Assembly (NCBI RefSeq): GCF_030694325.1 | Contig: NZ_JAUXYO010000053.1 | Coordinates: 2,806 to 66,805 of the forward strand | DNA: 64,000 nt | Direction of reading: 5' to 3' | Source: Bosea sp. (in: a-proteobacteria) | GTDB taxonomy: Bacteria > Pseudomonadota > Alphaproteobacteria > Rhizobiales > Beijerinckiaceae | Shown here: piece by piece, positions 21,473 through 58,758 of the stretch | Layout: every line of letters starts with the position of its first letter | Numbering within the stretch: the first letter of the stretch is position 1 | The notes under the pieces: generated by a model | What the model was told of the DNA's origin: nothing | The model's input: the letters and a program-made list of their open reading frames with translations, nothing else | The model's database searches: none | Program-made: the position numbers and the translations under genes

Positions 21473-21661
21473 CGAGCTCAGCAGCGCTCATCATGCACAC
21501 TTTCTCGTCAACAGAGCCACATTAGCGTTGACGCAGCGACATTCAGCTCCTAACTGCCTGCCGACTGTACACGATCGAGACGATTCTGCCGCACGCATGA
21601 TCATCCTCGATGCGCGCGCAGAGCTGCCTTGACATCCGCCTTACCGACAGGACGACACATC

Positions 21662-22363: not shown

Positions 22364-22418
22364 TCTGCGAGCCCGCTGCCGCGGCACGGCCCGAAGGCCG
22401 CGCCGCGCCGGGGCCGCC

Positions 22419-23828
22419 TCAGGCGGCTTTTGCCAGGCCGAGCATGGCCGGGCGCCTGTGCCGCCAGGGCGTGGCCTGTTCGAAGGCATGCGCCGCCTGC
22501 AGCAGCACCGCCTCGCCGAAGGGCCGGGCCGCGAGCTGGATCGCGACCGGCAGGCCATTCGGGCCGAAGCCCGAGGGCACGCAGATCGCCGGCATCCCGG
22601 TCAGGTTGAAGGCCATGGTGAAGTTCGGCTTGTCGAGATTGTCCCAGCGCGGCACCTGGTCGATCGGCGGCGCCTCGTCGGGATTGCCGGCCGTCAGCAC
22701 CACATCGACGCCGGCCATCGCCGCCGCCATTTCCGTGATCAGCTCGCGCCGGCGCCGCAGCGCCTGAACATAGTCCATGCCGGTGCAGAGCGCGGCGAAG
22801 ACCAGGCGGTCGCGATAGCGCTGCCCGAACTTCTCGGGATTCTTCAGCATCATCCGCTCATAGGCGGCCCCGCGCTCGATGGTCGAGATGAAGAAGCCGG
22901 CGGCCGTGTATTCCTGCATGGCCGAGAGCTTGATCTCGACGATCTCCGCGCCGAGGCTCTCATAGGTCGAAAGCGCCGCGTCGATGCCGGCCTTGACCGC
23001 AGGCGCCACCGGCCTGTCGGTCTCGTGCCAGCGGCTGAGCACACCGACTTTCAGCCCCTTCGCCCCCTTGCCGAGCCCGGCGGTGTAGTCGGGCACCGGC
23101 CTGTTCGCGCTGGCGGGGTCGGCGGGGTCATGGCCCGCGAGTGCCTGCAGCATCAGCGCGCAATCCTCCGTCGTCCAGGCCATCGGGCCGATATGGTCGA
23201 GCGAATAGGCCGCTGGCGCGACGCCGGCGCGGCTGACAAGCCCATAGGTCGGCTTCAGGCCGACGATGCCGCAGAGCGCCGCAGGGCCGCGGATCGAGCC
23301 GCCGGTGTCGGTGCCGAGCCCGCCGAGCACGAGCCCGGCCGCAACCGCTGCCCCCGTGCCGCTCGAGGAGCCCGCGGTGAAGCGCTGCGTGTTCCAGGGA
23401 TTGCGCGAGGGCGGCCAGGGAAGGTCGAAGGAGGGGCCGCCATCGGCGAATTCATGCGTGGTCAGCTTGCCCATCAGCACGGTGCCGGCGGCATCGAGCG
23501 CCGCGGCGCAGGTCGCGTCGGTGTCGGGGACATTGCCGATGTTGTGGGCGGACTGGCAGGTGGTCAGGATGCCCTTGGTGTCGATGATGTCCTTGAGACC
23601 GATCGGGATGCCGTGCAGCGGCGATGTCGGACCCGAGGCCTTGATCTCGGCTTCCGCTTTCTTCGCGTCGGCCCGGGCGCGGTCCTCGGTCAGGGTGACG
23701 AAGGCGTGAAGCTCCGGCTCGAAGGCCTTGGCGCGGGAAAGGCACATCTCGGTCAGCTCGACCGGGGAGAGCTGGCCGGCCTTGATCAGGGCCGCGGCCT
23801 CGCTGATGGTCAGGATGTCCGTGCTCAT
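22419..23828 (-). CDS. Amidase-signature family amidase A3
   Basis: 469 aa with GLKD, AGSSSGTGAAVAAG and GTDTGGSIRGPA motifs. Confidence 0.9.
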   Translation of the reverse strand: MSTDILTISEAAALIKAGQLSPVELTEMCLSRAKAFEPELHAFVTLTEDRARADAKKAEAEIKASGPTSPLHGIPIGLKDIIDTKGILTTCQSAHNIGNVPDTDATCAAALDAAGTVLMGKLTTHEFADGGPSFDLPWPPSRNPWNTQRFTAGSSSGTGAAVAAGLVLGGLGTDTGGSIRGPAALCGIVGLKPTYGLVSRAGVAPAAYSLDHIGPMAWTTEDCALMLQALAGHDPADPASANRPVPDYTAGLGKGAKGLKVGVLSRWHETDRPVAPAVKAGIDAALSTYESLGAEIVEIKLSAMQEYTAAGFFISTIERGAAYERMMLKNPEKFGQRYRDRLVFAALCTGMDYVQALRRRRELITEMAAAMAGVDVVLTAGNPDEAPPIDQVPRWDNLDKPNFTMAFNLTGMPAICVPSGFGPNGLPVAIQLAARPFGEAVLLQAAHAFEQATPWRHRRPAMLGLAKAA

Positions 23829-24028
23829 CGGGCGCTCTCCTCGCTCGGGAAGCTGAAGACATGGGCCGGTTCGGCCATGTAGCTGCGCTCGCCGCGGATC
23901 CGGGCGGACATTTCGACGATGTAGCCATAGGCCTCGGCATATTCGGCGACCTGCTCCGGCGTCAGGCTGAAGCCGGCGCGCGCCAGGAAGGCGCCCATCT
24001 CGGCTTCGGATGCAATCGGTGTCGGCAT
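23825..24028 (-). CDS. Small amidase partner protein S3 (67 aa)
   Basis: RBS AGGAGA. ATGA overlap with amidase A3. ...RSYMAEPAHVFSF motif. Confidence 0.7.
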   Translation of the reverse strand: MPTPIASEAEMGAFLARAGFSLTPEQVAEYAEAYGYIVEMSARIRGERSYMAEPAHVFSFPSEESAR

Positions 24029-24091
24029 GGCTCAGATCTCCTTCGAGGGGCGGATGCCCGCAGCTCGCGGGCGGCGGAATGCCGACACCGG

Positions 24092-24970
24092 CTAAGCCGG
24101 CAGCCGGCGCTGCTTGCGATGCTCGTCCTGGAAGATGAAAAGGGTGGCGCTCATCACGATCGCGGCGCCAAACAACGCCCAGCGATCGGGAATCTCCTGG
24201 TAGGCGAGCCAGGCGAACAGCGCGATGAAGGGCAGGCGGGCGAAGTCGAACGGCATGACCGTCGAGGCCGGCGCGTTGCGCAGCGCCAGGAACAGCGTCA
24301 GCCGGCCGACGAACATCGCCACCGCCATCACCACCAGAAACAGCATCATGTCGAAGGACGGCGTCCGCCAGTAGAGCACGGCGGGGATCAGGCCGGTGAC
24401 CACCGGGATCAGGGTGGTCACGGCGACGATGCGGCTGGTGCTCTCGATCTGCGTGAGACGCTTCGAGATCAGGTACATCGAGGCCATCGACAGGGTCGAG
24501 ATCATCAGCGCGATCGTGCCGGCGTCGAGTGCGACGAAGCCCGGCCGCGAGATCACCATCACGCCGACGAAGCCGACCATCACCGCGACCCAGCGGCTGC
24601 GCGAGACGCTCTCGCCGAGCAGGACGCCGGCCAGCGCCGTCACGATGATCGGTGCCGCGAAGGTCATCGCGGTGGCCTTGGCCAGCGGCACATGGGCGAG
24701 CGCATAGAACCAGGTCAGGTTCGAGACGCAGCCGACCGCAGTCATGATGCCGTAGAGCCTTCGCTTCTCGCGCCGGTCCGGCATTCCCGCCCCGCCCCGC
24801 AACTGCGGCCAGACGAAGACGAGCATGATCAGGTTGGTCAGGAAGCTGATCTGGAACGGGTGCAGTTCGGTCGCGATCTGCCGGACCAGCGAATTGCCAC
24901 CCGCCAGGAAGGCCGTGCTCAGAATCATCCAGAGAATGCCGGCCTGAACGGTGTTACGGGCCTCGGCCAT
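24092..24970 (-). CDS. EamA/DMT-family transporter
   Basis: 292 aa with about 10 TM segments. Confidence 0.75.
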   Translation of the reverse strand: MAEARNTVQAGILWMILSTAFLAGGNSLVRQIATELHPFQISFLTNLIMLVFVWPQLRGGAGMPDRREKRRLYGIMTAVGCVSNLTWFYALAHVPLAKATAMTFAAPIIVTALAGVLLGESVSRSRWVAVMVGFVGVMVISRPGFVALDAGTIALMISTLSMASMYLISKRLTQIESTSRIVAVTTLIPVVTGLIPAVLYWRTPSFDMMLFLVVMAVAMFVGRLTLFLALRNAPASTVMPFDFARLPFIALFAWLAYQEIPDRWALFGAAIVMSATLFIFQDEHRKQRRLPA

Positions 24971-25038
24971 GGCGCGGCGAATTCCTCAGAGGGGTGGCAA
25001 GGGGAGCGGGCGGCCCCGGCGATTCGCCCAGCAAGGGA

Positions 25039-26445
25039 TCAGGCGGCGAGCAGGGCGGGCCGGGTCGCGCGCCACTGGGTCGCCTGCTCATAGGCGTGGC
25101 CGAGCTGGAACACGGTCGTCTCGGCGAAGGGGTGCCCCACCAGCTGCATCGCGACCGGCAAGCCCGTTCCCGGCTCGTAGCCGGCGCAAAGAGCCAGAGC
25201 CGGCAGGCCTGTGACGTTGAAGGGCATGGTGATCGAAGGCTTCTGGTACATCAGCCATTTCGGCACATTGTCGATCGGCTGCGCCGGGAAGGGCGAGCCG
25301 GCCGTCAGCAGCACGTCGACGCCGATCATCGCCTCGGCCACGGCGGCGCACAGCTCCTGCCGACGTCGCAGCGCCTGCACGTAATCCGCCCCCGTCAGCA
25401 GCCCGCCCATGCTGATCCGGTCGCGGGCGATCTCGCCATAAAGCTCCGGCGTCGCCCGCAGATCCGCCTCGTGGATCGCGAAGGCCTCCGATGACATGAT
25501 GATCAGCCCCACCGCGGCGAAATCCATCAGCGGCGGCAGTGTTACCTCCTTGATCACGCAGCCGAGAGATCGGTAGACCGCAATCGCCTGCTCGATCGCC
25601 GCCAGCACGGGCGGCGCCGCCTCATGGTCGGTCTCGTGGAAATGGCGGATTACGCCGATGGTCTTGCCCTTCACCGTCTCGTCGAGTTTTTCTGTGAAGT
25701 CGGGCACAGCCACATCGGCGCAGGCCGGATCGAGCGGATCATGGCCCACCATCGCCTGCAGCATCAGCGCCGCATCCTCGACCGTCCAGCACATCGGCCC
25801 GGCATGGTCCAGCGATTGCGACAGCGGCAGGATGCCCCTTCGCGAAAGCAGCCCATAGGTCGGCTTGATCCCGGCCAGCCCACAGAGCGAGGACGGGCTG
25901 CGGATCGAGGCGCCGGTGTCCGAGCCGGTCGCGCCCAGCACCATGCCGGCGGCGACCGCCGCGCCCGAACCGGAGGAGGATCCGCCCGTCGTGCGCGCCG
26001 GGTCCCAGGGGTTGCGGGCGGGCAGCGTGAACAAATCGAAGGAGGGCCCGCCGATCGCGAATTCGAAGGTCCCGAGCTTGCCGGTGATCACCGCGCCGCT
26101 CTCGCGCAGCTTCGTCACCGTGAAGGCGTCCTCGGCCGGCACGCGGCTCTTCAACAGGTTGGAGTGGGCCGTCGTCGCCACGCCCGCCGTGTCGTAGATG
26201 TCCTTGAGCCCGACCGGGATGCCGTGCATCGGGCCGCGCGGCCCGCTTGTCCCGATCTCGGCCTCCGCGGCCCTGGCCGCGTCCAGCGCCAGCTCCGGCG
26301 TGAAGGCGACATAGGTGCTCAAGGTCGCGTCCAGCGCCTCCGTACGGGCGATGCAGGCCTTGGTCAGCTCGACCGGCGAGAGTTTGCGCTCGGCGATGAG
26401 GGTCGAGGCCTCGCGGATGGTGAGCAGCGTGGGATCGCCGGTCAT
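25039..26445 (-). CDS. Amidase-signature family amidase A4
   Basis: GLKD and GGSSSGSGAAVAAG are present; the nucleophile motif is the variant GSDTGASIRSPS. Start taken as MTGDPTLL (ATG 26445), 1 nt after the S4 stop; the ORF extends to 26490. Confidence 0.85.
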   Translation of the reverse strand: MTGDPTLLTIREASTLIAERKLSPVELTKACIARTEALDATLSTYVAFTPELALDAARAAEAEIGTSGPRGPMHGIPVGLKDIYDTAGVATTAHSNLLKSRVPAEDAFTVTKLRESGAVITGKLGTFEFAIGGPSFDLFTLPARNPWDPARTTGGSSSGSGAAVAAGMVLGATGSDTGASIRSPSSLCGLAGIKPTYGLLSRRGILPLSQSLDHAGPMCWTVEDAALMLQAMVGHDPLDPACADVAVPDFTEKLDETVKGKTIGVIRHFHETDHEAAPPVLAAIEQAIAVYRSLGCVIKEVTLPPLMDFAAVGLIIMSSEAFAIHEADLRATPELYGEIARDRISMGGLLTGADYVQALRRRQELCAAVAEAMIGVDVLLTAGSPFPAQPIDNVPKWLMYQKPSITMPFNVTGLPALALCAGYEPGTGLPVAMQLVGHPFAETTVFQLGHAYEQATQWRATRPALLAA

Positions 26446-26446
26446 C

Positions 26447-26635
26447 TCAGCGGCCCATTGGCGCGAAGATATGAGCCGGTTCGGCATCATAGCCGCGGGG
26501 CTTGCGCACGCGCTCCCGCATCGCCTGCAGCAGCATAAAGGCGCTGCGCATCTCCTCCATGTGCTCGGGCTTTACGCGGATACCCGCCCGGTCGAGCAGC
26601 ACCTGGAAGGCTTCGGTCGAGATGGTCTCGCTCAT
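26447..26635 (-). CDS. Small amidase partner protein S4 (62 aa)
   Basis: RBS GGAGA. ...RGYDAEPAHIFAP motif. Tightly coupled to amidase A4. Confidence 0.7.
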   Translation of the reverse strand: MSETISTEAFQVLLDRAGIRVKPEHMEEMRSAFMLLQAMRERVRKPRGYDAEPAHIFAPMGR

Positions 26636-26668
26636 GATCGTCTCCGCGAAAGGGGGAAATGCACCGGG

Positions 26669-28102
26669 TCACTCGGCGGCGAGCGCCTGCTGCGCCCATT
26701 GGGCCGGGCGCAGGTCGCGGTAGCTGGTCGCCTTCTCGAAAGCGCTGCCGACCCGCAGCACGAGATCGTCCTGGAAGGGCCGCCCGACGATCTGCATGTT
26801 CAGGGGCAGCCCCGCCGTTGAGAAACCCGAACAGACCGATAGGGCCGGCGAGCCGGTGAGGTTGAAGACGCGGGTGAAGGAGGGCCGCGAGCGCGACATC
26901 ATGTTGCCGAGGTCGCCGAGCTTCGGCGCCACGCCCGGCATGGTCGGACAGATCAGCACGTCGACGCTTTCGAACACGCTCGCGATCTCGGCGATCAGCC
27001 GGCCGCGCTCGCGCAGCGCGTTGACATAGTCGCAGGCGCGGATGAAGGCGCCCATCATGATGCGCTGGCGGGCAAGCTCGCCATAAAGCTCAGGCGTCGC
27101 CATCAGCGTCTCCTCATGGAAGGCGAAGGCCTCCGAGCGCGAGATCAGCGCTGCCGCGTCGCCATAGGCCGAGAGCGGCGACAGCGTGACGTCCGTCACC
27201 GCGCAGCCCAGCTCCCGGAAGGTCACCAGCGCCGCCTCGATGCCGGCCTTGATCTCGGGATCGGTCTCGGCGTCGCTCTCGAAGAAGTGCCTGACCACGC
27301 CGATGCGCAGCCCCTTCACGTCCTTCTGCCGCGAACCGGCGAAATCGGGCTTCGCGACGTCGGCGCTGCCGGGGTCGAGCGGGTCGTGCTGCGCCAGCAC
27401 CTCCATCATCAGCGCGCAGTCCTCGCTGGTCCAGCACATCGGCCCGCCATGGTCGAGGCTGAAGGAGAGCGGCAGGATGCCCCGGCGGCTGACCAGCCCA
27501 TACGTCGGTTTCAGCCCGGAAATCCCGCACCAGGCCGCCGGCCCGCGGATCGAGCCGCCGGTGTCGGTGCCCATCGAGCCCATGGCGAGCCCGGCCGCGA
27601 TCGCCGCGCCAGACCCCGAGGAAGACCCCGCCGGATCATGGGCGAGGTTCCAGGGGTTCTTCGCCGGCGGCCAGGGCAAGTCGAAGGAGGTGCCGCCGAT
27701 CGCGAACTCCCAGGTCGAGAGCTTGCCGAGCAGGATGGTGCCGGCCTCGGCCAGCAGGCGCGTCGTCGTCGCGTCCTCTTCCGGCACATGGTCCTTGTAG
27801 AGGGCGGAATGGCCGGTCGTGGGAATGCCCTTCGTGTTGTAGATATCCTTCAGCCCGATCGGGACGCCATGCAGCGGCCCTTTGTAGTCGCCCCTCATGA
27901 TCTCGCCCTCGGCCTTGCGCGCGGCCGCCATCGCCTGCTCGGGCAACACGCGGATGAAGGCGTTGAGCTGCCCGTCGAAGGCCTCAATCCGGGAGAGATA
28001 GGACGCGGTCAGTTCGACCGGGGAGAGCTTCTTGGCCTTCAGCAGCGGAGCGGCCTCGGCGATGGTCAGATCGTGCAGCGCGGTCATGGCGGCCCCCTTC
28101 AC
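26669..28102 (-). CDS. Amidase-signature family amidase A5
   Basis: GLKD, AGSSSGSGAAIAAG and GTDTGGSIRGPA motifs. The GTG at 28102 overlaps the S5 stop (GTGA); an alternative ATG is at 28087. Confidence 0.9.
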   Translation of the reverse strand: MKGAAMTALHDLTIAEAAPLLKAKKLSPVELTASYLSRIEAFDGQLNAFIRVLPEQAMAAARKAEGEIMRGDYKGPLHGVPIGLKDIYNTKGIPTTGHSALYKDHVPEEDATTTRLLAEAGTILLGKLSTWEFAIGGTSFDLPWPPAKNPWNLAHDPAGSSSGSGAAIAAGLAMGSMGTDTGGSIRGPAAWCGISGLKPTYGLVSRRGILPLSFSLDHGGPMCWTSEDCALMMEVLAQHDPLDPGSADVAKPDFAGSRQKDVKGLRIGVVRHFFESDAETDPEIKAGIEAALVTFRELGCAVTDVTLSPLSAYGDAAALISRSEAFAFHEETLMATPELYGELARQRIMMGAFIRACDYVNALRERGRLIAEIASVFESVDVLICPTMPGVAPKLGDLGNMMSRSRPSFTRVFNLTGSPALSVCSGFSTAGLPLNMQIVGRPFQDDLVLRVGSAFEKATSYRDLRPAQWAQQALAAE

Positions 28103-28290
28103 TTGGTCCAGAGCCGGAGCGCGTGAATGGGCTCCTGCAGGTAGCTGCGCTTGACCCGGATGGTGCGGGCGGCGGCTTCGAGATCGGCGACGGAGCCCTT
28201 GAGCGACTCCAGCGTTTCCGGGCCGACCTTCAGGCCGTATTCGGCAAGCTTGGCCTCGATCGGGATCGGCGTGGCGGGCGTGTCGGTCAT
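28099..28290 (-). CDS. Small amidase partner protein S5 (63 aa)
   Basis: Internal ATG of ORF 28099..28500 with RBS GGAGG. ...RSYLQEPIHAL motif. Confidence 0.65.
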   Translation of the reverse strand: MTDTPATPIPIEAKLAEYGLKVGPETLESLKGSVADLEAAARTIRVKRSYLQEPIHALRLWTK

Positions 28291-28328
28291 GGCGGCCTCC
28301 GGGATTCGAATGAAAGGGCGGGCGGCGG

Positions 28329-29753
28329 TTATTCGGCGGCGAGACTCATCGGCGCGGCGGCCTCCGGGCTCGGCCGCCGTTCCCGCCAGGCGGTCGCGGC
28401 CTCGTAGGCCTGGGCGGCGCGGTAGATCGTCGCCTCGCCGAAGGCATGGCCGGCGATCTGGACCGAGAGCGGCAGGCCCGAGGCCGAGAAGCCGCAGCAC
28501 ATCGTCAGCGACGGCATGCCGGTGACGTTGAAGGGGAATGTCAGCGGCGGCTTGGCGAACAGGCCGAATTTCGGGATCTCGGTGATCACCGGTGCGGGCG
28601 TCGCGGTTGCGGCGCAGACGATGATGTCGTAGCGCGACATCGTCCTGGCGACAGCCGCGACCAGCTCCGTGCGCATCCGCAGCGCCTGGACATAGTCGCT
28701 GGCGTCGATCAGCCCGGCGAGCAGCAGCCGGTCGCGCAGGATCTCGCCATAGAGCTCGGGCCGCGCCTGGATGTTGGGCTCGTGGATGGCGAAGGCCTCC
28801 GAGAGCAGGATCATCATCCCGCAGGCGGCGAAATCGGCCAGCGGCGGCAGCGTCACCTCCTCGACTGTCGCCCCGAGGCCCGCGAGCGTCGTCGCGACGC
28901 CTTCGACCGCGCTTTGCACCTCATCCGTGGCCTCGGCCTGGGCCCCGAGCGAGGGCAGATAGCCGATGCGCAGACCTTTCACGCCAGCGCCCAGTAGCGC
29001 CTCGGGCGTGGGATCGGGCCGGTCGGCGCTGGCGGGGTCGAGCTGGTCGTGCCCGGCCAGAACCTTCATGAGGAGAGCGTTGTCCTCGACCGTCCAGGTC
29101 ATCGGGCCGATATGGTCGAGGCTTTGCGAGAGCGGCAGCACGCCGCGCCGCGAGACCAGCCCATAGGTCGGCTTCATCCCGACGATGCCGCAGAAAGCGG
29201 CCGGCAGACGGATCGAGCCGCCGGTGTCGGTGCCCAGCGCTGCCGGCACGAAGCCGGCCGCCACCGCGGCGCCCGAGCCCGAGGAGGAGCCGCCGGTGAA
29301 ATGCGCGAGGTTCCACGGGTTGCGCGCCGGCGGAAAGGGCAGGTCGAAGGAGGGTCCGCCCATGGCGAATTCATGGGTCGCGAGCTTGCCGAGGATGACG
29401 GCGCCCGCCGCCTTCAGCTTCTGGGTGACGAAGGCGTCGTCGGTCGCCCAGTTGTCGATGAGCTGGTGCGAATGGGCGGTGGTGCGCACGCCCTTGAGGT
29501 CGATGATGTCCTTCAGCCCGACCGGCACGCCATGCAGCGGACCGCGGCTGATCCCCGTCATCACCTCCGCCTCCGCCTTCTTCGCCTGGGCGAGGGCGAG
29601 GTCGGCGGTCACCTCGATGAAGGCATGCGTCATCCCGTCGAGCGCCGCGACGCGGGCGATCAGCGCCTTGGTCAGCTCGACCGGGGAGACGGTCTTCGCC
29701 GCGATCGCCTTGGCCAGGTCTGCGACGGTCATGAAATGCAACGGTGCGGACAT
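28329..29753 (-). CDS. Amidase-signature family amidase A6 (no small ORF immediately upstream)
   Basis: 474 aa with GLKD, GGSSSGSGAAVAAG and GTDTGGSIRLPA motifs. Confidence 0.9.
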   Translation of the reverse strand: MSAPLHFMTVADLAKAIAAKTVSPVELTKALIARVAALDGMTHAFIEVTADLALAQAKKAEAEVMTGISRGPLHGVPVGLKDIIDLKGVRTTAHSHQLIDNWATDDAFVTQKLKAAGAVILGKLATHEFAMGGPSFDLPFPPARNPWNLAHFTGGSSSGSGAAVAAGFVPAALGTDTGGSIRLPAAFCGIVGMKPTYGLVSRRGVLPLSQSLDHIGPMTWTVEDNALLMKVLAGHDQLDPASADRPDPTPEALLGAGVKGLRIGYLPSLGAQAEATDEVQSAVEGVATTLAGLGATVEEVTLPPLADFAACGMMILLSEAFAIHEPNIQARPELYGEILRDRLLLAGLIDASDYVQALRMRTELVAAVARTMSRYDIIVCAATATPAPVITEIPKFGLFAKPPLTFPFNVTGMPSLTMCCGFSASGLPLSVQIAGHAFGEATIYRAAQAYEAATAWRERRPSPEAAAPMSLAAE

Positions 29754-33573: not shown

Positions 33574-35127
33574 TCAGCGCGCCACCAGCGGGAAGGTCGC
33601 GGCGATCGCCCAGGCGAAGGCGAAGGCATTGGCGATGCCGGCCATGAAGGGATGGCCGGAGCGCCGGAACGCCCAGGCGCTGAACAGCCCGTAGACGAGG
33701 AAGAACAGCACGATCACCGGGACGATGATCAGGAGGAAGAACAGCCGCTGGAAGTCGAGCGCGACCGCCAGCCCGAGCGAGATGAGGAAGGCGAGTTTCG
33801 AGGCGAGGAACGCCCCGCGCGCAGCGCCCTCCCCGCGCGTCAGCCACTCATCGGCGAGAAAATAGATCAGCGTCCCCGCCAGCGTCGCGGCAAAGAGCGG
33901 CAGGCGGTGGCCGGCCGGCACGAACGCCGTCACGAAGCTGTGGACCGGCCAGGCGAGCGCGACGAGCCCGAACAGCATCAGCGCCAGCGTCCCCACCGCC
34001 AGCCGGCCGGGCGACATCTCCGACTGCAGGCGGTCCCGCCCGCGCTGGACAAAGGCGACGCAGAGTGCCGTGAGGGCGCCATAGGCCGCAAAATGCACGG
34101 CGAGATAGTCGCCGACGATGACGGGCAGGAAGGTTGTCGGCACGAAGCGCAGCAGGATCGGCGTCAGCAGCGCCGGCAGGATCAGCGGCAGCGCGATGCG
34201 CCGCCAGCCCAGCCCTGCCCCGACCGGCGGCGAGGCCACGCGTGGCAGCAGCGCCGAGAGCGGCCAGGCCAGCAGGACGACGCCGGCGAGCAGCAGCAGG
34301 ATCCACACGCCCCGGCTGTCGAGATCGGGGTTTGCTGCAGCCGGCCGATCGAGGCTCGCATCGAGCCAGGCCAGCGCCTCGCGCAGGCTCGCCTCATTGT
34401 AGAGCACACCGACATGCTCGGCCCGGGGACTGACGGCGGCGCGCCTGGCGGTCCCCGCCGCGACGTCGCCATAGGTGACTCCCGCCTCGGGAGGGGCCGG
34501 CGCCGAGACCAGCCCGACCGCGCGCAGCGCCTCGCGCCGCAAGCCCCCTTCCCATTCCCCGGCGATGACCAGCAGGTTGCGCGGGCTGGTCGCGGTGACG
34601 GCGGGCGAGAACATCGAGACCGCGACCGTCGCCGCGATATCGGCCCGGCTCTGGGCGACGCGCACGATGATGTCGGTCGCCATCGAATGACCGAGGAGAG
34701 CGAGCCGCCCGTCGCCCAGCCCTTTGGCCCTGTCGACGACGTGCCCGCTCTCCTGGACCAGCCGGCGCGTCGCGCCGTCCTCGCGGGAAATGCTGCCTGT
34801 GAGCGGCACAGGATTGGCGCCATGGCCGGCGAAATCGAAGGTCACCGCGACGTAGCCGGCGCGTGCCAGCGTCACCGCGAAGGGCTGCATCAACTGCTGC
34901 GAGCCTGCGAAACCATGGGCGATCACGACCACGGGGGCGGGGGCCCCGCTCTGGACCGGGCGGAACACCGTCATCGGCGTGCCCTCCGCCGTCATCGCCT
35001 CGATGGTGACGCCGCGCCGCGCATCCTGCAATTGCACCAGGGCGACGCCGATCGCGACGATGGCCAGCCCGGCGATTGTCAGCCGGACCCATGCTTTGGC
35101 AGGCCAGCCCGGCTCGCGCTCCGTCAT
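33574..35127 (-). CDS. Alpha/beta-hydrolase domain fused to a C-terminal polytopic membrane domain (function unknown)
   Basis: 517 aa from MTEREPGW (ATG 35127), 20 nt after the bchG stop. N-terminal TM segment, then VVIAHGFAGS...LLGHSMA (nucleophile-elbow-like), then about 220 aa with 6 or more TM helices. Confidence 0.7.
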   Translation of the reverse strand: MTEREPGWPAKAWVRLTIAGLAIVAIGVALVQLQDARRGVTIEAMTAEGTPMTVFRPVQSGAPAPVVVIAHGFAGSQQLMQPFAVTLARAGYVAVTFDFAGHGANPVPLTGSISREDGATRRLVQESGHVVDRAKGLGDGRLALLGHSMATDIIVRVAQSRADIAATVAVSMFSPAVTATSPRNLLVIAGEWEGGLRREALRAVGLVSAPAPPEAGVTYGDVAAGTARRAAVSPRAEHVGVLYNEASLREALAWLDASLDRPAAANPDLDSRGVWILLLLAGVVLLAWPLSALLPRVASPPVGAGLGWRRIALPLILPALLTPILLRFVPTTFLPVIVGDYLAVHFAAYGALTALCVAFVQRGRDRLQSEMSPGRLAVGTLALMLFGLVALAWPVHSFVTAFVPAGHRLPLFAATLAGTLIYFLADEWLTRGEGAARGAFLASKLAFLISLGLAVALDFQRLFFLLIIVPVIVLFFLVYGLFSAWAFRRSGHPFMAGIANAFAFAWAIAATFPLVAR

Positions 35128-35147
35128 GCCGCGCGCGGGCCCATCGT

Positions 35148-36074
35148 CTAGAATCCCGCGGGCAGGCTGCGCACAGCGACCGCGCTCGCCATCATGCCGA
35201 AGACGAAGAGCGGCACGCCAAAGCCGCTGTAGAACAGGGCCTTGCCGACCGGATCGCGCAGGAAGCGAACCATCAACGCGAGCTGCCCTGTCAGGAAGGC
35301 GCCGACCACGATGGCCTCGATCGGCCGCTGCCACTGCAGCAGCAGCGCGACGACGCCGAACTGCGGCGCAGCCATGATCGCGCAGGCGACCCGCGCCGCG
35401 CCCTGCGCCCCGAGCATCACCGGCAGCGAGCGGATGCCCATTTGCCGGTCGCCCTCCATCGCCTTGAAGTCGTTGAGGGTCATGATGCCGTGGGCGCCGA
35501 GGCTGTAGAGCGCCGCCAGCGTCAGCACCGGCCAGGGTGGGAGCGCGCCGCCGAGCATCACCGCAGCACCCGTCACCCAGGCCAGTCCCTCATAGGAGAA
35601 GCCGCAGGCCGCATTGCCGAGCCAGCCATTGCGCTTCAGCCGCAAGGGCGGCGCGCTATAGGCCCAGGCCAGGAACAGCCCGAGGCAAGTCGCGATCAGC
35701 ACCCAGGAGCCGAGCAGCGAGGCGACCGCCAGCGACAGCCCGGTCCAGATCATCGCGATGTACAGCCCCCAGCGGCCGGGAATGCGGCCTGACGGGATCG
35801 GCCGGTGCGGCTCGTTGATCGCATCGACCTCGCGGTCGTACCAGTCGTTGATCGCCTGGCTCATCGCGCAGACCAACGGTCCCGCCAAGATGACGCCCGA
35901 CAGCGCGACGACGGGATTGTCGGCGATCGACATGCCCGACGACACCACCCCGCAGGCGAAGGCCCACATCGGCGGGAACCAGGTGATCGGCTTGAGCAGT
36001 TCGAGGACCGCCGATGGCGCGGGATAGGCCAAGGGCCCCGTGCCGGGCCTGAGCGTCGCCCCGGTCTCGCTCAT
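35148..36074 (-). CDS. bchG: Bacteriochlorophyll synthase (UbiA-family prenyltransferase)
   Basis: 308 aa with NDWYDREVDAINEPHRPIPSG and a second Asp-rich region LNDFKAMEGDR. ATGA overlap with bchH. Confidence 0.9.
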   Translation of the reverse strand: MSETGATLRPGTGPLAYPAPSAVLELLKPITWFPPMWAFACGVVSSGMSIADNPVVALSGVILAGPLVCAMSQAINDWYDREVDAINEPHRPIPSGRIPGRWGLYIAMIWTGLSLAVASLLGSWVLIATCLGLFLAWAYSAPPLRLKRNGWLGNAACGFSYEGLAWVTGAAVMLGGALPPWPVLTLAALYSLGAHGIMTLNDFKAMEGDRQMGIRSLPVMLGAQGAARVACAIMAAPQFGVVALLLQWQRPIEAIVVGAFLTGQLALMVRFLRDPVGKALFYSGFGVPLFVFGMMASAVAVRSLPAGF

Positions 36075-40204: not shown

Positions 40205-40530
40205 TAGTGACGCCGTGCGCTACCGTTCTGGAAACGGACCAGACGTGCGGACGTGGTTTCCGACGCCGCGTGGAAGGCGCGCGCCGGCATCCGTCACGAT
40301 CAGGCCATCCGATCCGGACCGCGTGGTTCCGGTTCTCATATCTGTCCCGGATGGAGCGTCAGGATCATGCCGACCTTGCCGGGCGCCACTGGCGGCCCGG
40401 TGGGTAGCTCGCAGGCTTCCTGCACCGCTCCGCACCAGGGCATCGCAGATGACGACGGTTCCGGTCTCGTCCGGTTCCGATGCAGCTCACATACATGCAG
40501 GCCGTCAACACGGAACGGGCCTTCGTCGCC

Positions 40531-41946
40531 ATGTCTTCTGCTCCGCCCCGGGACCAGACCGCCACGCCACAGGCCACGCCCTGGCCCGGTGGCCTGTCGC
40601 CCTTCTTGCGCGACGTCATCGCCTCGGCGGCAGACATCGCGTTGCTGCTCGATGGCGCCGGTGTCATCGTCGCCGCGATCGGGGATGGAGAGACCTGGAT
40701 CGGCCGCGCCTTCCCCGACGTGGTCTCGCCCGACAGCCGGGCCAAGGCGGTCGGGCTGACCGGCGACGACTCGGCCCTCGCGACGACAGCCAGCGAGATC
40801 AACCATCCGGGCCCCGACGGCACGCAGCGGTCGTTTCGCTACCACCGCGTAACCGATGGCGGCAGCGGCCTGCACTGTCTGATCGGACGTGACCTCTTCC
40901 GCGTCGCCGCGCTTCAGAACCGGCTCCTGGACGCCCAGCAGGCGATGGAGCGCGAATATGCCCGGCTGCGGCTCGCTGAGACGCGCTACCGAATCATCTT
41001 CCACTCCTCCCCCGAGCCGATCCTGGTCGCCGATGCCGCGACCCTGCGGCTGATCGAGGCCAATCCCGCTGCGCTCGCAGAACTCGACCTGCAGCCGGAT
41101 CGCCTCGGCCGGATCACGCTCCCCTCGCTGTTCTCACCGATGAGCAGCGATGCGCTGGAGACCATGCTCGCCTCGGCGCGCCATTCCGGTGTGGCGGGGG
41201 AGGTCGAGGTGTCGCGGCCCGGCACCGCGCATAAGACGGCGATTCGCGCCATCGCCTTCCGCCAGGAAGCTGCCCTGCATCTGCTGGTGCGCCTGCGCCG
41301 GCCGGAGATCGATGCAGTCGCGCTCGGCGCGGACGCGTCGCTGCGCCATGTCCATGGGATGGTCGAGCAAACCCCCGACGGTTGCGTCATCATGAGCCCC
41401 GAGCGCATCGTCCTGCACGCCAACCGGGCTTTTCTCGAACTGGCCCAGTTGGCCTCGCGCCACCAGGCGATCGGCGAGCCGCTCGACCGCTGGCTGGGGC
41501 GGCCCGGCATCGACCTGCCGCTGATTCAGGGCACGCTCACCGACCACGGCGTCATCCGCAACTTTCCCACCATCGTGCGCGGCGCCTTCGGCGGCGTCGA
41601 GGCGGTCGAGCTGTCGGCGGTCACGGCCTGGGCCGGCGAATCCGGCTCGGTCGGGCTCATCATCCGCAGCAAGGGCGCGCAGGCCGCCATGCCGCAGCAG
41701 CGCGGCGCCGCTTTGCCCCGCTCGGTGGAGCAGCTGGCGCAACTGGTCGGCAACGTGCCGCTGAAGGACATCGTGCGCGAGACGAGCGACGTCATCGAGC
41801 GGCTCTGCATCGAATCGGCGCTGGATTTGAGCCGCAACAACCGAGCCGCCTCCGCACAGATGCTCGGCCTCAGCCGCCAGAGCTTCTATGCCAAGCTGCG
41901 CCGCCACGGCCTCGGCGACCTCGCCGACCAGGACGAGCAGATCTGA
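40531..41946 (+). CDS. ppsR: PpsR/CrtJ-family photosynthesis gene regulator (copy 1)
   Basis: PAS-repeat architecture and C-terminal Fis-type HTH NNRAASAQMLGLSRQSFYAKLRRHGL. Start taken at MSSAPPRD; the ORF opens at 40480. Confidence 0.85.
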   Translation: MSSAPPRDQTATPQATPWPGGLSPFLRDVIASAADIALLLDGAGVIVAAIGDGETWIGRAFPDVVSPDSRAKAVGLTGDDSALATTASEINHPGPDGTQRSFRYHRVTDGGSGLHCLIGRDLFRVAALQNRLLDAQQAMEREYARLRLAETRYRIIFHSSPEPILVADAATLRLIEANPAALAELDLQPDRLGRITLPSLFSPMSSDALETMLASARHSGVAGEVEVSRPGTAHKTAIRAIAFRQEAALHLLVRLRRPEIDAVALGADASLRHVHGMVEQTPDGCVIMSPERIVLHANRAFLELAQLASRHQAIGEPLDRWLGRPGIDLPLIQGTLTDHGVIRNFPTIVRGAFGGVEAVELSAVTAWAGESGSVGLIIRSKGAQAAMPQQRGAALPRSVEQLAQLVGNVPLKDIVRETSDVIERLCIESALDLSRNNRAASAQMLGLSRQSFYAKLRRHGLGDLADQDEQI

Positions 41947-44979: not shown

Positions 44980-46425
44980 TCAGTTCAGCTCACTGCCGTC
45001 GTCATCGAGGTCACCGAGGCCGTGACGGCGCAGCTTGGCGTAGAAGCTCTGCCGGCTGAGGCCGAGCATGTTGGCGGCGGAGGCCCGGTTGTCCTTGCTC
45101 AGCTCCAGCGCCGCCTCAATGCAGAGCTTCTCGATCACGTCGGTGGTCTCTCGGACCAGATCGCGCAACGACACGCGCCCGACCAACTCCGTCAGGTCCT
45201 CGGCGGAGCGAGGCAGCAGACCGCCGCGCTGCCCGGCCAGCGCATTGCGAACGCCGAGGCTGCGGATGACGAAGCCATAGGACGGTGTGCTGCCGCTCAG
45301 CGCCGGAACGGCCGAGAGCTCGACCTCCTCGACCGTCCCGAACTGGCCGCGCATGATCGTGTTGAAGTTGCGAACGACACCGTGTTCCTTCAGCGTCACC
45401 ATCAGGAGTTGCAGGTCGATCCCGGGTCGGCCGAGCCAGCGGTCGAGCGGCTCGCCGAGCGCCTGATGCTTGCTCGAGAGCTGGGCTAGGTCGAGGAAGG
45501 CCCGGTTCGCTTCCAGCACCTTCAGCTCCGGGCTGATCACGACGAACCCGTCGGGCAACTGCTCCAGCACACCCAGGATGCGGCTTTCCGCGGCCGCACT
45601 CGCCGTGCTGTCGGCGGTGAGCGGCGTCAGCCGGATCAGCAGATAGGCCGCGTTGTCCTGCCGAAAAGACGACGCCATGGCCCGGAAGCGCTTCGCACCG
45701 GAGGCGAGCGCGATCTCCGTCTCGTCTGCCCGTCCGGTCGCCTGCACGGCCCGCAGCATCCCTTGCAGGGCTTCGCCGCTTTCAGGCACAAGCCCCGCCA
45801 GAATCGAGGTGTTGGTCAGCTTGTCGCCTGGCAGTTCGAGCTGGCTCTGCGCCGCGGGATTGGCCTCGACCACACGATAATTGGCGGCCTCGACGATCAC
45901 CACCGGCTCCGACGTGAGGTGAAATAGCATGCGATAGCGGGTTTCCGCCATCCGGAGCCGCGCATATTCGCGCTCCATCGCCTGTTGCGCCTCGACCAGC
46001 TGCTGCTGGAGGTGGGCGAGGTTACGCAGGTCGCGCCCGAGCGCGACGATGGTGCCGTCGGCGCCGACCTGCATCGCTGAATAGCGGACGGGGACGTCGG
46101 CGCCGCCCTCCGTCGGATGGTTCAGTTCGCGGAACTGGATGGAGGTCTCGCGTCCGGCATTCTCGAGCAGGTCCACGACCTTCGGCCGGCTCTCGACGGA
46201 GACGACATCGATCCAGTTGCGGCCGATCCAGTTGCGATGCCCTTCGCGCCGCAGTTCCTCCGTCCCGAGGGAGACGTCGAGGATGACGCCGTCGCGGTCC
46301 AACACGAGGGCGAGGTCGCAAGCCGCCGTGATCAGGCTCCCCGCCACATGGGGCGCGAGCCGTCCGAGCCATCCCGACTGACCCTTGAAGCCGAGTGTAG
46401 GAGCCTGGGGAGCGAAGACGTTCAT
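44980..46425 (-). CDS. ppsR: PpsR/CrtJ-family photosynthesis gene regulator (copy 2)
   Basis: 481 aa from MNVFAPQ. PAS repeats and C-terminal HTH DNRASAANMLGLSRQSFYAKLRRHGL. Confidence 0.85.
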   Translation of the reverse strand: MNVFAPQAPTLGFKGQSGWLGRLAPHVAGSLITAACDLALVLDRDGVILDVSLGTEELRREGHRNWIGRNWIDVVSVESRPKVVDLLENAGRETSIQFRELNHPTEGGADVPVRYSAMQVGADGTIVALGRDLRNLAHLQQQLVEAQQAMEREYARLRMAETRYRMLFHLTSEPVVIVEAANYRVVEANPAAQSQLELPGDKLTNTSILAGLVPESGEALQGMLRAVQATGRADETEIALASGAKRFRAMASSFRQDNAAYLLIRLTPLTADSTASAAAESRILGVLEQLPDGFVVISPELKVLEANRAFLDLAQLSSKHQALGEPLDRWLGRPGIDLQLLMVTLKEHGVVRNFNTIMRGQFGTVEEVELSAVPALSGSTPSYGFVIRSLGVRNALAGQRGGLLPRSAEDLTELVGRVSLRDLVRETTDVIEKLCIEAALELSKDNRASAANMLGLSRQSFYAKLRRHGLGDLDDDGSELN

Positions 46426-46498
46426 CACGACGAGTACCCGGTTCCTGCCTATGAGGGGCGGTCGAACGGCCTTGAGCAGATAAAGGCGTACCCGATCT

Positions 46499-47401
46499 TC
46501 AACAAGAACTCTTTTTCGTCTCGAGCATCCAATCGACACGACTGACGGCTTCCGCTGCGTCGCGCGCCCCGAGATCGGCGCCCAGCGATAACGCCAGCCC
46601 CGGATCCATGACGAACAGGTTCCCGCCCAGCATGACCCGGACGGAAGTGTTCAGCGAGGCCGCACGCACCGCCTTGACCACCGAGGCCACGCCGGCGGCG
46701 GAAACTTCGCCGCTGGCGGACAATCCCACCAGGTCGAACCATTCGGTCCGGACATGCTCGATCAGGATCGGTTTCGACGGCAGGAACTCGGACTGCACAT
46801 GCCAGCCGGCCCTTCGGAAGAACTCCTCCACCACCGCGAGCCCGAAGGTGTGCTGCTCACCGGGCACGACCGCCAGCAGGATTCGCCCACGCTCCACGAC
46901 CGGAGCGGGACTGACCTCGAAGGCCGGCCCATAGACCCGCAACAATTGCTGCAGCCGCGACAGCCCCACGGTAACGTCGACGAAGGTGCAGCGGTCCTGC
47001 TCCCAGAGCAGGCCGAGATGGCGCGCCGTCGCCGAGAGAACGCTCGTGATCACGGCCTCCGCGGAGAGGCCTCGGTCACGGAGCCCGTCGAGATGCGCGC
47101 GCGCCGCGCTCAGCGGCTGGTGCACGATCATGTCGGCGAATGCCGCGACATCGGCATCCGAGATCGTGACCGGCCCCTCGGCCACCTCGGTCGGCCGTAC
47201 CACGCCCGGCCCGCGATGCGCGAGCATCAGCCGCGGGATGATCTCCGTCTCGATCGTGCGGGCGAGGTCGGAGCGTAGCCCCGGCTGCTGCCCGACCGCA
47301 TCGAGAGGGCACCAATTGGCACCGGGAAGATCGGGCAGCCCGATCGTGTCTTCGGCATATGGCTTTCGCGCAGCCAGTAATCCGCGCCCCAAGTCAGGCA
47401 T
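46499..47401 (-). CDS. ppaA: PpaA/AerR-type cobalamin-binding antirepressor
   Basis: RBS GGGAGG. C-terminal B12-binding-domain-like LLAVVPGEQHTFGL...DLVGLSAS. Located immediately upstream of ppsR, as in other photosynthesis clusters. Confidence 0.7.
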   Translation of the reverse strand: MPDLGRGLLAARKPYAEDTIGLPDLPGANWCPLDAVGQQPGLRSDLARTIETEIIPRLMLAHRGPGVVRPTEVAEGPVTISDADVAAFADMIVHQPLSAARAHLDGLRDRGLSAEAVITSVLSATARHLGLLWEQDRCTFVDVTVGLSRLQQLLRVYGPAFEVSPAPVVERGRILLAVVPGEQHTFGLAVVEEFFRRAGWHVQSEFLPSKPILIEHVRTEWFDLVGLSASGEVSAAGVASVVKAVRAASLNTSVRVMLGGNLFVMDPGLALSLGADLGARDAAEAVSRVDWMLETKKSSC

Positions 47402-47502
47402 GAGGTCACCTCCCTCAGGCAACCGTCCGATCCAGCCAGGAACTCTGATGGTCCTGTTACGTAGTGGCCGCACCGCAGCCGACGGTCTGGAAGGCAGTTC
47501 CT

Positions 47503-47856: not shown

Positions 47857-49661
<1,805 letters not shown>

Positions 49662-49663
49662 CA

Positions 49664-51283
49664 ATGCAGCTCACCGTCTGGACCTATGAAGGCCCCCCGC
49701 ATGTCGGCGCGATGCGGATCGCCACCGCGATGACCGACGTGCATTACGTGCTGCACGCGCCCCAGGGCGACACCTATGCCGACCTGCTCTTCACCATGAT
49801 CGAGCGGCGCGGCCAGCGCCCGCCCGTGACCTACACCACCTTCCAGGCACGCGATCTCGGCGGCGACACCGCCGATCTGTTCCAGCGCGCCGCTCTCGAC
49901 GCCTATGAGCGCTTCAGGCCGTCCGCCATGCTGGTCGGCGCCTCCTGCACCGGCGAGCTGATCCAGGACGATCCGGCCGGGCTCGCGCGAGCGCTGGGCC
50001 TGCCGATCCCGGTGATTCCGCTCGAGCTGCCCTCCTATCAGCGCAAGGAGAACTGGGGCGCGGCGGAGACCTTCTACCAGCTCGTGCGCAGCCTGGCGGG
50101 CCCGCATATGCCGGCGCCGGGCACCGCCCGCCCCGCCCGCGCGCCCGGCGAACCCGCTCGCTGCAACATCCTCGGCGCCACCGCACTCGGCTTCCGCCAC
50201 CGCGACGATGTCCGCGCCGTCAAGGATCTGCTGGCGCGGCTCGGGGTCGCCGTCAACGTCGTCGCACCCTGGCAGGCCGGCGCCGCCGACATCGCCCGGC
50301 TCGGCCAGGCCGATTTCAACATCGTGCTCTATCCCGAGATCGCGGGGCTCGCCGCGCAATGGCTCAAGCGCGCCTTCGGCCAGCCGACCATCGCCACCGT
50401 GCCGATCGGCGTCGGCGCCACCCGCGACTTCATCACCGAGGTCACCCGCCTCGCCGGCGTCGACGCCACGGAGGTCCTGGCCGACGAGACCTCGCGCCTG
50501 CCCTGGTATTCGCGCTCGGTCGATTCGACCTATCTGACCGCCAAGCGCGTCTTCGTCTTCGGAGACGCCACGCATGCCATCGCGGCGGCCCGCATCGCCA
50601 GCGACGAGCTCGGCTTCAAGGTCGTGGGCCTCGGCACCTATTCCCGCGAGCGCGCCCGCGACGTCCGCGAGGCCGCCGCCCGGCTCGGGCTCGAGGCCAT
50701 GATCACCGACGACTATCTTGAGGTCGAGGCGGCCTGCGCCGAGCTGCAGCCCGAACTCGTCCTCGGCACCCAGATGGAACGCCACATCGCCAAGCGCCTC
50801 GGCATCCCCTGCGCGGTGATCTCGGCCCCGGTCCATGTCCAGGATTTCCCGGCGCGCTACTCGCCGCAGATGGGCTTCGAGGGCGCCAACGTCATCTTCG
50901 ACGCCTGGGTCCATCCGCTGATGATGGGTCTGGAGGAACATCTGCTCGGCATGTTCCGCGACGATTTCGAGTTCAACGACGGCGCCGGTTCCTCGCATCT
51001 CGGCCACGGCGCCAAGCCTGTCATTCCGGGGCTTCGCGAAGCGAAGAACCCCGTCGTGGCCTCCGGGTTCGCCCCTGACGGGCCGCCCCGGAATGACAGC
51101 GAGAGCACAGACAGGCCGATCGTCCTCAGCTGGGCGCCCGATGCCGAACTCGAACTGAAGAAGATCCCGTTCTTCGTGCGCGGCAAGGCTCGGCGGAACA
51201 CCGAGAAATTCGCAGGCGAGCGCGGGATCAGCCCGATCACGGTGGAGACACTCTACGATGCCAAAGCCCATTTCGGCCGCTGA
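49664..51283 (+). CDS. bchB: Light-independent protochlorophyllide reductase subunit B
   Basis: Starts [23 protein letters not shown]...[13 protein letters not shown]. Confidence 0.9.
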
Positions 51284-56015: not shown

Positions 56016-56489
56016 ATGAGCGACACCGCCCTTCCCCCGCCAACATCCGCCAGCCTGTCGCCACCGCGCTGGGCGCTGGTCGGCATGGCCCTGCTGGTGG
56101 TGGCGACGATCGCCATCGCCGGCCTCGCCCGGCAGACCGGCATCGGCGCCACCGGCATTCCCGACAGCCCGACCGTCGCCCGAGCCGATCTGCGCTTCGA
56201 GGACCGGGAGGACGGCTCCGTCCTGGTTCGCGACGGTTCCGGCCGGGTGCTCGAGACGATCGCCGTCGGGGCCGACGGCTTCATCCGCGGCACGATGCGC
56301 AGCCTGGCGCGCCAGCGCAAACAGGCCGGCCTGCCGCGGGACCTGCCCTTTCTTCTGGAGCGCCGCGAGAATGGCCGCCTCAGCCTGAGCGATCCCGCGA
56401 CAGGCGCCCGCATCGAGCTCGACGCCTTCGGCACCGGCAACGCCGCCACCTTCGCGCGCTTCCTGGCTTCTCGGGAGAACCGCTCATGA
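56016..56489 (+). CDS. puhC: Photosynthetic complex assembly protein PuhC
   Basis: 157 aa with RBS GAGGAGG, a single TM segment and FIRGTMRSLARQR. Confidence 0.8.
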   Translation: MSDTALPPPTSASLSPPRWALVGMALLVVATIAIAGLARQTGIGATGIPDSPTVARADLRFEDREDGSVLVRDGSGRVLETIAVGADGFIRGTMRSLARQRKQAGLPRDLPFLLERRENGRLSLSDPATGARIELDAFGTGNAATFARFLASRENRS

Positions 56490-56806
56490 CCGACTTCACT
56501 CTGACGGACAGAACCATGGCCGAGCCGAAACAGTTCGATGTCGGCTGCACCATCGAGGTGTCCCACACCTTCGAGAGTCTGCACGCCCATGTGACGCTCG
56601 ACGGCGACATCAAGATCCGCCCCGGCGACGAGGTCATCGTCCATGGCGAGCCGATCAAGGTTCCCTATGGCGAGGTCCAGACCTTCCGCCGCGTCGCGAC
56701 CGTCAAGCGCGCCGGCTGGCTCGAGCAGCTCTGGACCAGGATCACCGGCCGCGCCGAATTCATGGAGCTGCTCGAATTCAGCTTCTCGGAAAGGACCAAG
56801 CTATGA
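56486..56806 (+). CDS. Conserved photosynthesis-cluster ORF upstream of acsF (BciE-like cyclase accessory protein by position)
   Basis: 106 aa soluble protein with ATGA overlaps to both puhC and acsF. It occupies the position of the small ORF reported to be needed for AcsF activity in alphaproteobacteria; this is recalled from the literature, not aligned. Confidence 0.55.
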   Translation: MTDFTLTDRTMAEPKQFDVGCTIEVSHTFESLHAHVTLDGDIKIRPGDEVIVHGEPIKVPYGEVQTFRRVATVKRAGWLEQLWTRITGRAEFMELLEFSFSERTKL

Positions 56807-57882
56807 CCGCTGCAACCCTTTCGGCCGGCGCCATGCGCGCGGCCCCCAACGAAGCCACCCGCATGGCCCAGCAGGACACCATGCTGACGCCGCGCTTCTA
56901 CACCACCGATTTCGAAGAGCTCGACAAGATTGACGTCACGCCCGTCCGCGCCGAATGGGACCTGCTGATCGCCGAGATGAAGAGCGACCCCAACAAGGGT
57001 CACTTCACCCGCAACGCCGACTGGAAGCTCGAGCTCGAGAAGATCCCCGAACCCCTGCGCAAAGAGTTCATCGACTTCCTGGTCTCGTCGCTGACGGCGG
57101 AGTTTTCCGGCTGCGTGCTCTATGCCGAGATGCGCAAGCGCGGCACCAACCCCGACATCTGCGAGCTGTTCAAATAGATGCGCCGCGACGAGGCCCGCCA
57201 TGCCGGCTTCATCAACGACGCGCTCAAGGAATTCAGCATCGGCGTCGATCTCGGCTTCCTGACCAAGGCCAAGAAATACACCTTCTTCAAACCGAAGTTC
57301 ATCTTCTACGCGACCTATCTCTCCGAGAAGATCGGTTATGCCCGCTACATCACCATCTACCGGCACCTCGAGCGTAACCCCGACAAGTGCTTCCACCCGA
57401 TCTTCAAATGGTTCCGCGAGTGGTGCAACGACGAGTTCCGCCATGGCGAGGCCTTCTCGCTGCTGATGCGGGCGAACCCGCATCTGCTCACAGGCGGCAA
57501 CAAGCTCTGGGTGCGCTTCTTCCTACTCGCCGTCTACGCGACGATGTATGTGCGCGACCATGTCCGGCCGGAATTCCACAAGGCGCTCGACATCGATCCG
57601 ACGCAGTATGATTTCGAGGTCTACCGCATCACCTCGGAGATCTCGCGCCAGGTCTTCCCGGTCGTCCTCGACACCGACAATCCGAAGTTCCGCGCCGGGC
57701 TCGAGCGGGTCCGCATCCTCGCCGGCAAGATCGCAGAGGCCGCCGAGCAGGGCGGGCTCGCCGCGCAGCTCAGGATGCGCGCCTATCAGGCCCAGGTCGG
57801 CTACGTCCTGCTCAAGCTCTATCTGCTGCCGACGATCAAGAACGAGATCCCCCGCACCAGCCGGCTCCAGCCGGCCTATTGA
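56803..57882 (+). pseudogene. acsF: Aerobic Mg-protoporphyrin IX monomethyl ester cyclase AcsF interrupted by an in-frame TAG at 57175..57177
   Basis: ORFs 56803..57177 and 57178..57882 share one frame and read ...[47 protein letters not shown]... The combined length of about 358 aa equals an intact AcsF. Confidence 0.8.
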
Positions 57883-57894: not shown

Positions 57895-58758
57895 TTGGTC
57901 ACCTACGGGCTCCCGATCGTCGCGACACTGATCGCCTGGTGGTTCTCCACCGGCGCGATCCTCTATCTCGACGGTCTGCCCCGGGCGACCTTCCGCTGGA
58001 GCCTGGCGGGCGCCACGCTCGCTCTGCTCGCCGCCTTCTGGGGCCTGGCCGCCACGGCCGGAGACACTAGCGTCGCCGGCGCCTATCTCGCCGTGTTCTC
58101 CGCGCTCGTGGTCTGGGGCTGGAACGAGCTTGCCTTCCTGCTCGGCTATGTCGCCGGCCCGACGCGGGAGCCCTGCGCGCCCGGCCTGCGCGGCTTCGCC
58201 CGCTTCAAGGCCGCGACTCGCGCCATCCTGCATCACGAGCTGGCGCTGCTGGCTTCGCTGGCGGTCATCGCCCTCCTCACCGCCGACGGGGCGAACCTGT
58301 TCGGCCTCGCCACCTTCGCGCTGCTCTTCGCCATGCGCCTCTCGACCAAGCTCAATATCTATCTCGGCGTGCCCAACACCACGGTCGAGTTCCTGCCCGC
58401 GCATCTCGGCTATCTGAAGAGCTATTTCCGCCAGCGGCCGATGAACCTGCTGTTTCCGCTCTCGGTGACCGCCGCGACGCTTCTCAGCGCCTGGCTGGTG
58501 CACAGCGTCGTGCGCGCCGACGATCCCTTTGCGATCACGGGCTTCGTCCTGCTGGCGACCTTCGCCGTGCTCGGCCTCGTCGAGCACTGGTTCCTGGTGC
58601 TGCCGCTGCCGGTCGCCGAGCTCTGGGCCTGGGGCCTGCGCTCGCGTGACGAGGCCGCCCCTGCCGATCCCGCGCCCGTACGGTCCCCGGCGCCGCTCCC
58701 TTCCGCCACCGGCCTCGCGACACCGCGCGCCGTTCCCCCGCCAACCCTCGTCGCATAG
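57895..58758 (+). CDS. puhE: Photosynthetic complex assembly protein PuhE
   Basis: 287 aa polytopic protein. TTG start 7 nt after RBS GAGGAGG. Lies between acsF and hemA. Confidence 0.8.

Follow-up and report, generated by a model that had tools for sequence, protein, structure and literature searches.

Gene content and organization of the locus

The 64-kb stretch of DNA analyzed here (hereafter the window) carries a photosynthesis gene cluster with tspO, hemC, bchG, bchH, two copies of ppsR, bchP, pucC and a gene for an AerR-like B12-binding protein, together with bchFNBLM, lhaA, puhABC, a bciE-like ORF, acsF, puhE, hemA, pufML and bchZ. The operon order around acsF (puhABC, bciE-like ORF, acsF, puhE, hemA) is common to the intact Bosea AcsF loci. 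The stop of the bciE-like ORF (56804..56806) overlaps the acsF start in an ATGA, and a homologue of this ORF was found directly upstream of acsF in 81/81 of the related genome loci, while the ORF itself gave no match in Pfam or NCBIfam. A BciE-dependent class of alphaproteobacterial O2-dependent cyclases has been described (PMC7319587), and with a bciE-like gene upstream, acsF of the window appears by sequence to be of this BciE-associated type. On the other side of acsF, puhE has GGAGG before its start at 57895, no internal stops in comparison with the Bosea locus L004, and TAG as its terminator. The preliminary description of this DNA had taken the flanking genes to be intact on account of the ATGA overlap with the 106-aa ORF and the ribosome-binding site of puhE, and both are present. 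The coordinates of the features are collected in Table 1.

Beyond these two genes, bchF, bchN, bchB, bchL, bchM, lhaA, puhA, puhB, hemA, pufM, pufL and the part of bchZ that lies in the window were, like the bciE-like ORF and puhE, full length and free of stops when compared with L004. A loss of bchP was considered and rejected, as the gene is intact and contained in a longer ORF. No sign of cluster-wide decay was observed among the neighboring photosynthesis genes compared. Neither bchE nor a second acsF was found within the 64-kb window, in agreement with the preliminary description as regards bchE, or, in the other Bosea loci, at a distance of up to 10 kb from acsF, and we found no statement in the literature on the presence of bchE in Bosea. 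Isolates related to Bosea are reported to be aerobic anoxygenic phototrophs (PMC8146977).

Table 1. Features of the acsF region (positions are those of the window)
Feature	Positions	Strand	Basis or remark
bciE-like 106-aa ORF, intact, presumed O2-dependent cyclase auxiliary subunit	56486..56806	+	99% aa identity to L004
acsF N-terminal part, residues 1–124	56803..57174	+	TIGR02029; helix bounds from AF2 model of P0001
Putative ligand Glu100	57100..57102	+	N-terminal part, helix 1
Premature TAG replacing Tyr125	57175..57177	+	base 57177 = G; nearest relatives C (TAC)
acsF C-terminal part, residues 126–359, from native Met126	57178..57882	+	TIGR02029, Pfam Rubrerythrin
CGC (Arg127); relatives AGC/AGT/TCN (Ser), GCN (Ala) or Thr	57181..57183	+	
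Putative ligands Glu130-x-x-His133	57190..57201	+	C-terminal part
Putative ligand Glu175	57325..57327	+	C-terminal part
Putative ligands Glu211-x-x-His214	57433..57444	+	C-terminal part
puhE (DUF3623), intact, downstream in the same operon	57895..58758	+	PF12291 full length; 94% aa identity to L004

The interrupted acsF reading frame

The acsF frame runs from the ATG at 56803 to a TGA at 57880..57882 and is interrupted once, by the TAG listed in Table 1 (positions 57165..57189 read GCTGTTCAAATAGATGCGCCGCGAC). The TAG shares its frame with the ATG at 56803, the codon that follows it is an ATG at 57178, and a mechanical list of ORFs reports two of them, 56803..57177 (124 aa) and 57178..57882 (234 aa). 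Against the AcsF profile TIGR02029 of NCBIfam (cut-off 192.5 bits), the 124-aa ORF matched positions 1–111 with 140 bits, which alone is under the cut-off, and the 234-aa ORF matched positions 113–336 with 345 bits. The one profile position absent between the two ORFs is the stop, and the gene is otherwise collinear and full length; a Rubrerythrin/ferritin-like domain (PF02915) was recognized by Pfam in the 234-aa piece. The preliminary description had read the two ORFs as one AcsF in a single frame, broken by an in-frame TAG with an ATG behind it, and the DNA and the profile matches agree with it. By sequence, acsF thus belongs to its family (profile matched over the full length, 96% identity to the intact Bosea protein P0001), whereas the TAG at codon 125 leaves it without one unbroken polypeptide that holds the full ligand motif.

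Comparison with related loci and proteins

Codons 125–127 were compared across 81 loci from related genomes, and the corresponding residues across 163 AcsF proteins from databases. The loci come from a scan with one genome per species, in which the best 80 acsF loci were listed besides P0001, and in which a split gene would score lower, so that the genome of the window itself may have fallen outside the list. The best protein match was P0001, an intact Bosea AcsF of 359 aa with 96% amino-acid identity, and the nearest loci among those listed were all Bosea (L002, L004, L005 and L003, then AAP35, Leaf344 and others). Over 17 kb, the photosynthesis cluster has a DNA identity of about 90–94% to other Bosea, and since acsF itself reaches at most 94.7% DNA identity to the loci listed, the window belongs to a species or strain of Bosea without a representative among them.

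At the position of the stop, the codon was always a sense codon in the 81 loci (TAC in 42 and TAT in 32, i.e., Tyr in 74, and Leu, Phe, Val, His or Met in the other 7), and the residue in the 163 database proteins was Tyr, Phe, Leu or Met. Where the window has AAA TAG ATG CGC CGC, the sequence in the five nearest Bosea is AAA TAC ATG AGC CGC, so that TAC ATG AGC has become TAG ATG CGC by two substitutions, both of them transversions. One is a C to G change at 57177 (TAC to TAG, Tyr125 to amber), and the other, 4 nt downstream of it, an A to C change at 57181 (AGC to CGC, Ser127 to Arg). Residue 127 was Ser, Ala or Thr in 81/81 loci and 163/163 proteins, and Arg in none, while Met126 was invariant across every AcsF examined. 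The ATG after the TAG is therefore the native codon, neither a new start nor an adaptation. With regard to the preliminary description, the Leu- or Tyr-like residue that it had given for this position was indeed found in relatives, and the stop itself needs only the single base change that it had proposed. It had missed the second change at 57181, and its emphasis on a TAG with an ATG right behind it was misplaced.

Orthologues naturally encoded as two ORFs divided at this very site, a situation that the preliminary description had set against its own reading, were not encountered: acsF was split at codon 125 in 0/81 of the genome loci listed and 0/163 of the database proteins, and a metagenome scan with a degenerate pattern, which covered every stop at codon 125 and was run without a positive control, returned 0 contigs. 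An exact-DNA metagenome scan for the mutant allele gave no match, neither the two AcsF fragments (124 aa and 234 aa) nor HemA had an exact protein match in a large protein collection, and a search of the PLSDB plasmids for the mutant allele retrieved only a distant Sulfitobacter acsF.

Two database entries of 234 aa named AcsF (P0122 and P0149) begin at Met126 and were considered as candidate split alleles. Their contigs start 6–25 nt upstream of this codon and read AAA TAT ATG, and the entries are gene-calling artefacts of contig ends, not natural split alleles. Public metagenome gene calls (L082, L083, L084 1..60) also include an "AcsF" of 250 aa that begins at the conserved Met110.

Di-iron ligands and predicted structure

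The di-iron motif of AcsF is E-xn-ExxH-xn-E-xn-ExxH (PMC7319587), and the putative ligands are Glu100 and, in invariant columns, Glu130/His133, Glu175 and Glu211/His214. All six are encoded in the window, and the TAG parts Glu100, in the 124-aa piece, from the other five, in the 234-aa piece. No structure related to AcsF by sequence was found in the PDB. P0001 was modeled with AlphaFold2 (44 homologues, mean pLDDT 84). The predicted fold is all-helical, and its best matches in the PDB (aldehyde-deformylating oxygenase, RNR R2 and acyl-ACP desaturase) are ferritin-like di-iron enzymes, all of them weak matches (E ≥ 0.17, TM about 0.4–0.6). In the model, Glu130 and His133 are borne by a helix that spans residues 117–142, and residue 125 lies eight residues into this helix, outside the loop 114–116, so that helix 1 and the initial 8 residues of helix 2 would stay with the 124-aa piece.

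Selection on acsF and age of the lesion

Among the 359 codons of acsF, the residues absent from all 81 relatives number three: Leu54, whose position varies freely, then the stop and Arg127. The pairwise dN/dS of acsF against L004 was 0.073 (0.024 for the N-terminal and 0.087 for the C-terminal part), and the values for bchN, bchL, lhaA, puhA, the bciE-like ORF, hemA, pufM and pufL against the same locus were 0.027–0.103. Since acsF falls within the range of its neighbors, purifying selection acted on it until very recently, and by these substitution ratios practically all of its divergence arose under normal constraint.

Substitutions private to the window amount to ~1.1% (94 in 8.5 kb), and they are clustered about as much as expected (5 close pairs). 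At this rate, the chance of a second private change within 4 nt is ~9% even if sites are neutral, and an independent one this close, at a position that > 240 sequences conserve, is very unlikely. With the chance of two independent changes being very low, both are best read as one event, and the break looks like a very recent, local, two-base event. The lesion is a derived state, it is recent, and the genes on either side of it are intact.

The 8-mer that the two substitutions create, AGATGCGC at 57176..57183, recurs in direct orientation at 57128..57135, exactly 48 nt (16 codons) upstream, where it codes for E-M-R (GAG ATG CGC). A double substitution templated by this copy was considered and rejected, given a chance of ~5% and poor flanking microhomology: in a simulation of this G+C-rich region, 5.5% of random double substitutions gave a match of at least 8 nt within 100 nt, and the AGATGCGC match is probably a coincidence. 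A small inversion of CATGA or ACATGAG was likewise rejected, as by inspection it does not reproduce the observed bases. The literature on DnaE2/ImuB mutational signatures offered nothing usable.

Functional interpretation

The probable explanation is a single local mutation of two bases (Tyr125 to amber, Ser127 to Arg) that inactivated acsF very recently. Ribosomes would stop after residue 124, and the N-terminal product would have just one of the six di-iron ligands, the first, leaving no complete E...ExxH...E...ExxH site on one chain. The O2-dependent cyclase step, from MgPME to divinyl-protochlorophyllide, would then be lost. Some ribosomes may restart at the native ATG and thereby soften polarity on puhE and hemA, with a 234-aa restart product that would be expected to be inactive. 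The exchange of Ser127 for Arg alongside the stop makes a functional product still less likely. Aerobic bacteriochlorophyll synthesis would be impossible without a gene for BchE or for another AcsF elsewhere in the genome; it is the loss of cyclase activity and the resulting phenotype that we infer here from the lesion.

In being collinear over the whole profile, in its operon position and in encoding all six putative ligand residues, the gene resembles other acsF genes, and it differs from them in a frame broken at codon 125, in Arg in place of Ser127, and in a full ligand site that no single polypeptide carries. As in "internal stop" pseudogenes, one in-frame stop interrupts a gene that is otherwise conserved, the neighbors are intact and relatives show no recurrence, while the second substitution 4 nt off, indicative of a multi-nucleotide event, and the lack of further decay set it apart from typical ones. 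The lesion is located at the youngest end of pseudogene age. The case of acsF is an ordinary internal stop pseudogene situation and no new kind of system, and its unusual features are limited to the two-base event and its extreme youth.

The main competitor to a genuine null mutation is a local sequencing, consensus or assembly artefact, with a true genome that reads TAC ATG AGC and an intact acsF. We regard it as rather unlikely, though with an appreciable chance of being correct, since the observations pull in both directions: the two odd bases lie within 5 nt of each other in a stretch that otherwise matches relatives over > 100 nt, the remainder of acsF and of the cluster appears fully selected, and no independent copy of the allele was found in the collections searched (proteins, metagenomes), but Ns are absent from the 64 kb and no further disrupted gene was seen where genes were annotated or compared, which argues for a clean assembly, and both changes are substitutions and not homopolymer indels. 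A systematic base-calling error at CATGA was rejected, as this ancestral pentamer is unaltered at 169 sites in the window, which makes a motif-dependent error unlikely. Real pseudogenes are moreover common in bacterial genomes, and this also counts against an artefact.

An active enzyme could still be kept if chains 1–124 and 126–359 were made by termination and reinitiation at the TAG-ATG, or if near-cognate readthrough of the UAG at a low level gave the full-length protein. A stop and a start that adjoin favor reinitiation through translational coupling, both halves are otherwise pristine, and the TAGATG resembles the junctions of naturally split or translationally coupled genes. Such genes are nevertheless a poor parallel, as the split of the window occurs in no relative (none of the loci listed, database proteins or metagenome contigs mentioned above), its start is the ancestral internal Met and no new feature, no SD-like sequence precedes the ATG at 57178, and the 234-aa database entries from Met126 are contig-end truncations. 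The break also falls within a predicted core helix (117–142 in the AF2 model, pLDDT 84) and not in a loop or at a domain boundary, and either product would have Arg127 at a position that otherwise admits only Ser, Ala or Thr. According to the model, a two-chain enzyme would need to re-form the broken core helix while bearing this Arg127. We therefore give the retention of an active enzyme by either route little probability, and less again to a working two-chain AcsF that reassembles around the di-iron site or to a cyclase strongly down-tuned via UAG readthrough; if true, this would be the first case of an O2-dependent cyclase that is split or attenuated. A recoded TAG, whether by an amber suppressor tRNA, by pyrrolysine or by some other reassignment, has nothing more to speak for it than the in-frame TAG itself, and it is extremely improbable: TAG terminates 6 of the 50 genes of the window, including bchG, bchN and puhE, the tRNAs of the window are only Pro(CGG) and Gln(TTG), with no suppressor among these 2, and most relatives encode Tyr at the position of the stop. 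Of the three options in the preliminary description, the recent pseudogene has thus gained support and the error keeps a lesser probability, while expression in two pieces or by readthrough is argued against by the lack of a split relative and by the helix break.

If the null mutation is real, the window would capture the earliest visible step of phototrophy loss, with the other photosynthesis genes still under selection. A strain with a complete-looking cluster would then probably make no bacteriochlorophyll under oxic conditions, and calling its genome that of an "aerobic anoxygenic phototroph" would be wrong. Should bchE be missing from the rest of the genome as well, MgPME would be expected to build up in the strain and no bacteriochlorophyll to be made. 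The main value of the observation lies in annotation and in phenotype prediction, without bearing on any open mechanistic question about the cyclase, and as a caution, the presence of the cluster alone is no basis for inferring phototrophy of the strain.

Other features of the window

Several further features of the window were recorded. In bchB (49553..51283), a private in-frame deletion of 54 nt is located at ~51048..51051, in the variable C-terminal linker, in comparison with the Bosea loci L004–L007; L002 has different indels in the same stretch of the linker, and the BchB profile is still matched end to end in the window. Two PpsR/CrtJ paralogues (40480..41946 on the plus and 44980..46539 on the minus strand) are placed on either side of bchP and pucC, and the second of them is adjoined by the gene of a 323-aa AerR/PpaA-like protein with a B12-binding domain (46499..47473). 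One paper describes the Bosea PGC as lacking ppsR (PMC10569730), a claim that the two paralogues of the window do not fit. Between hemC and bchG, inside the pigment cluster, lies a gene for a 585-aa protein of the alpha/beta-hydrolase fold (33574..35334, minus strand), which has weak family matches and ~115 N-terminal residues without any match.

Directly abutting the photosynthesis cluster is a region (4313..29753) with an unusual concentration of amidase-signature genes (PF01425), of which six paralogues were found at 4313, 8699, 22419, 25039, 26669 and 28329. They are interspersed with two isochorismatase-family genes, an asparaginase gene, an acetamidase/formamidase-family gene, three EamA transporters and a peptide-type ABC transporter. 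The two tRNA genes of the window, tRNA-Pro(CGG) (minus strand) and tRNA-Gln(TTG) (plus strand), diverge from each other at a distance of ~200 nt (3405..3759), in a 2.3-kb stretch without a confident ORF (1714..4002).
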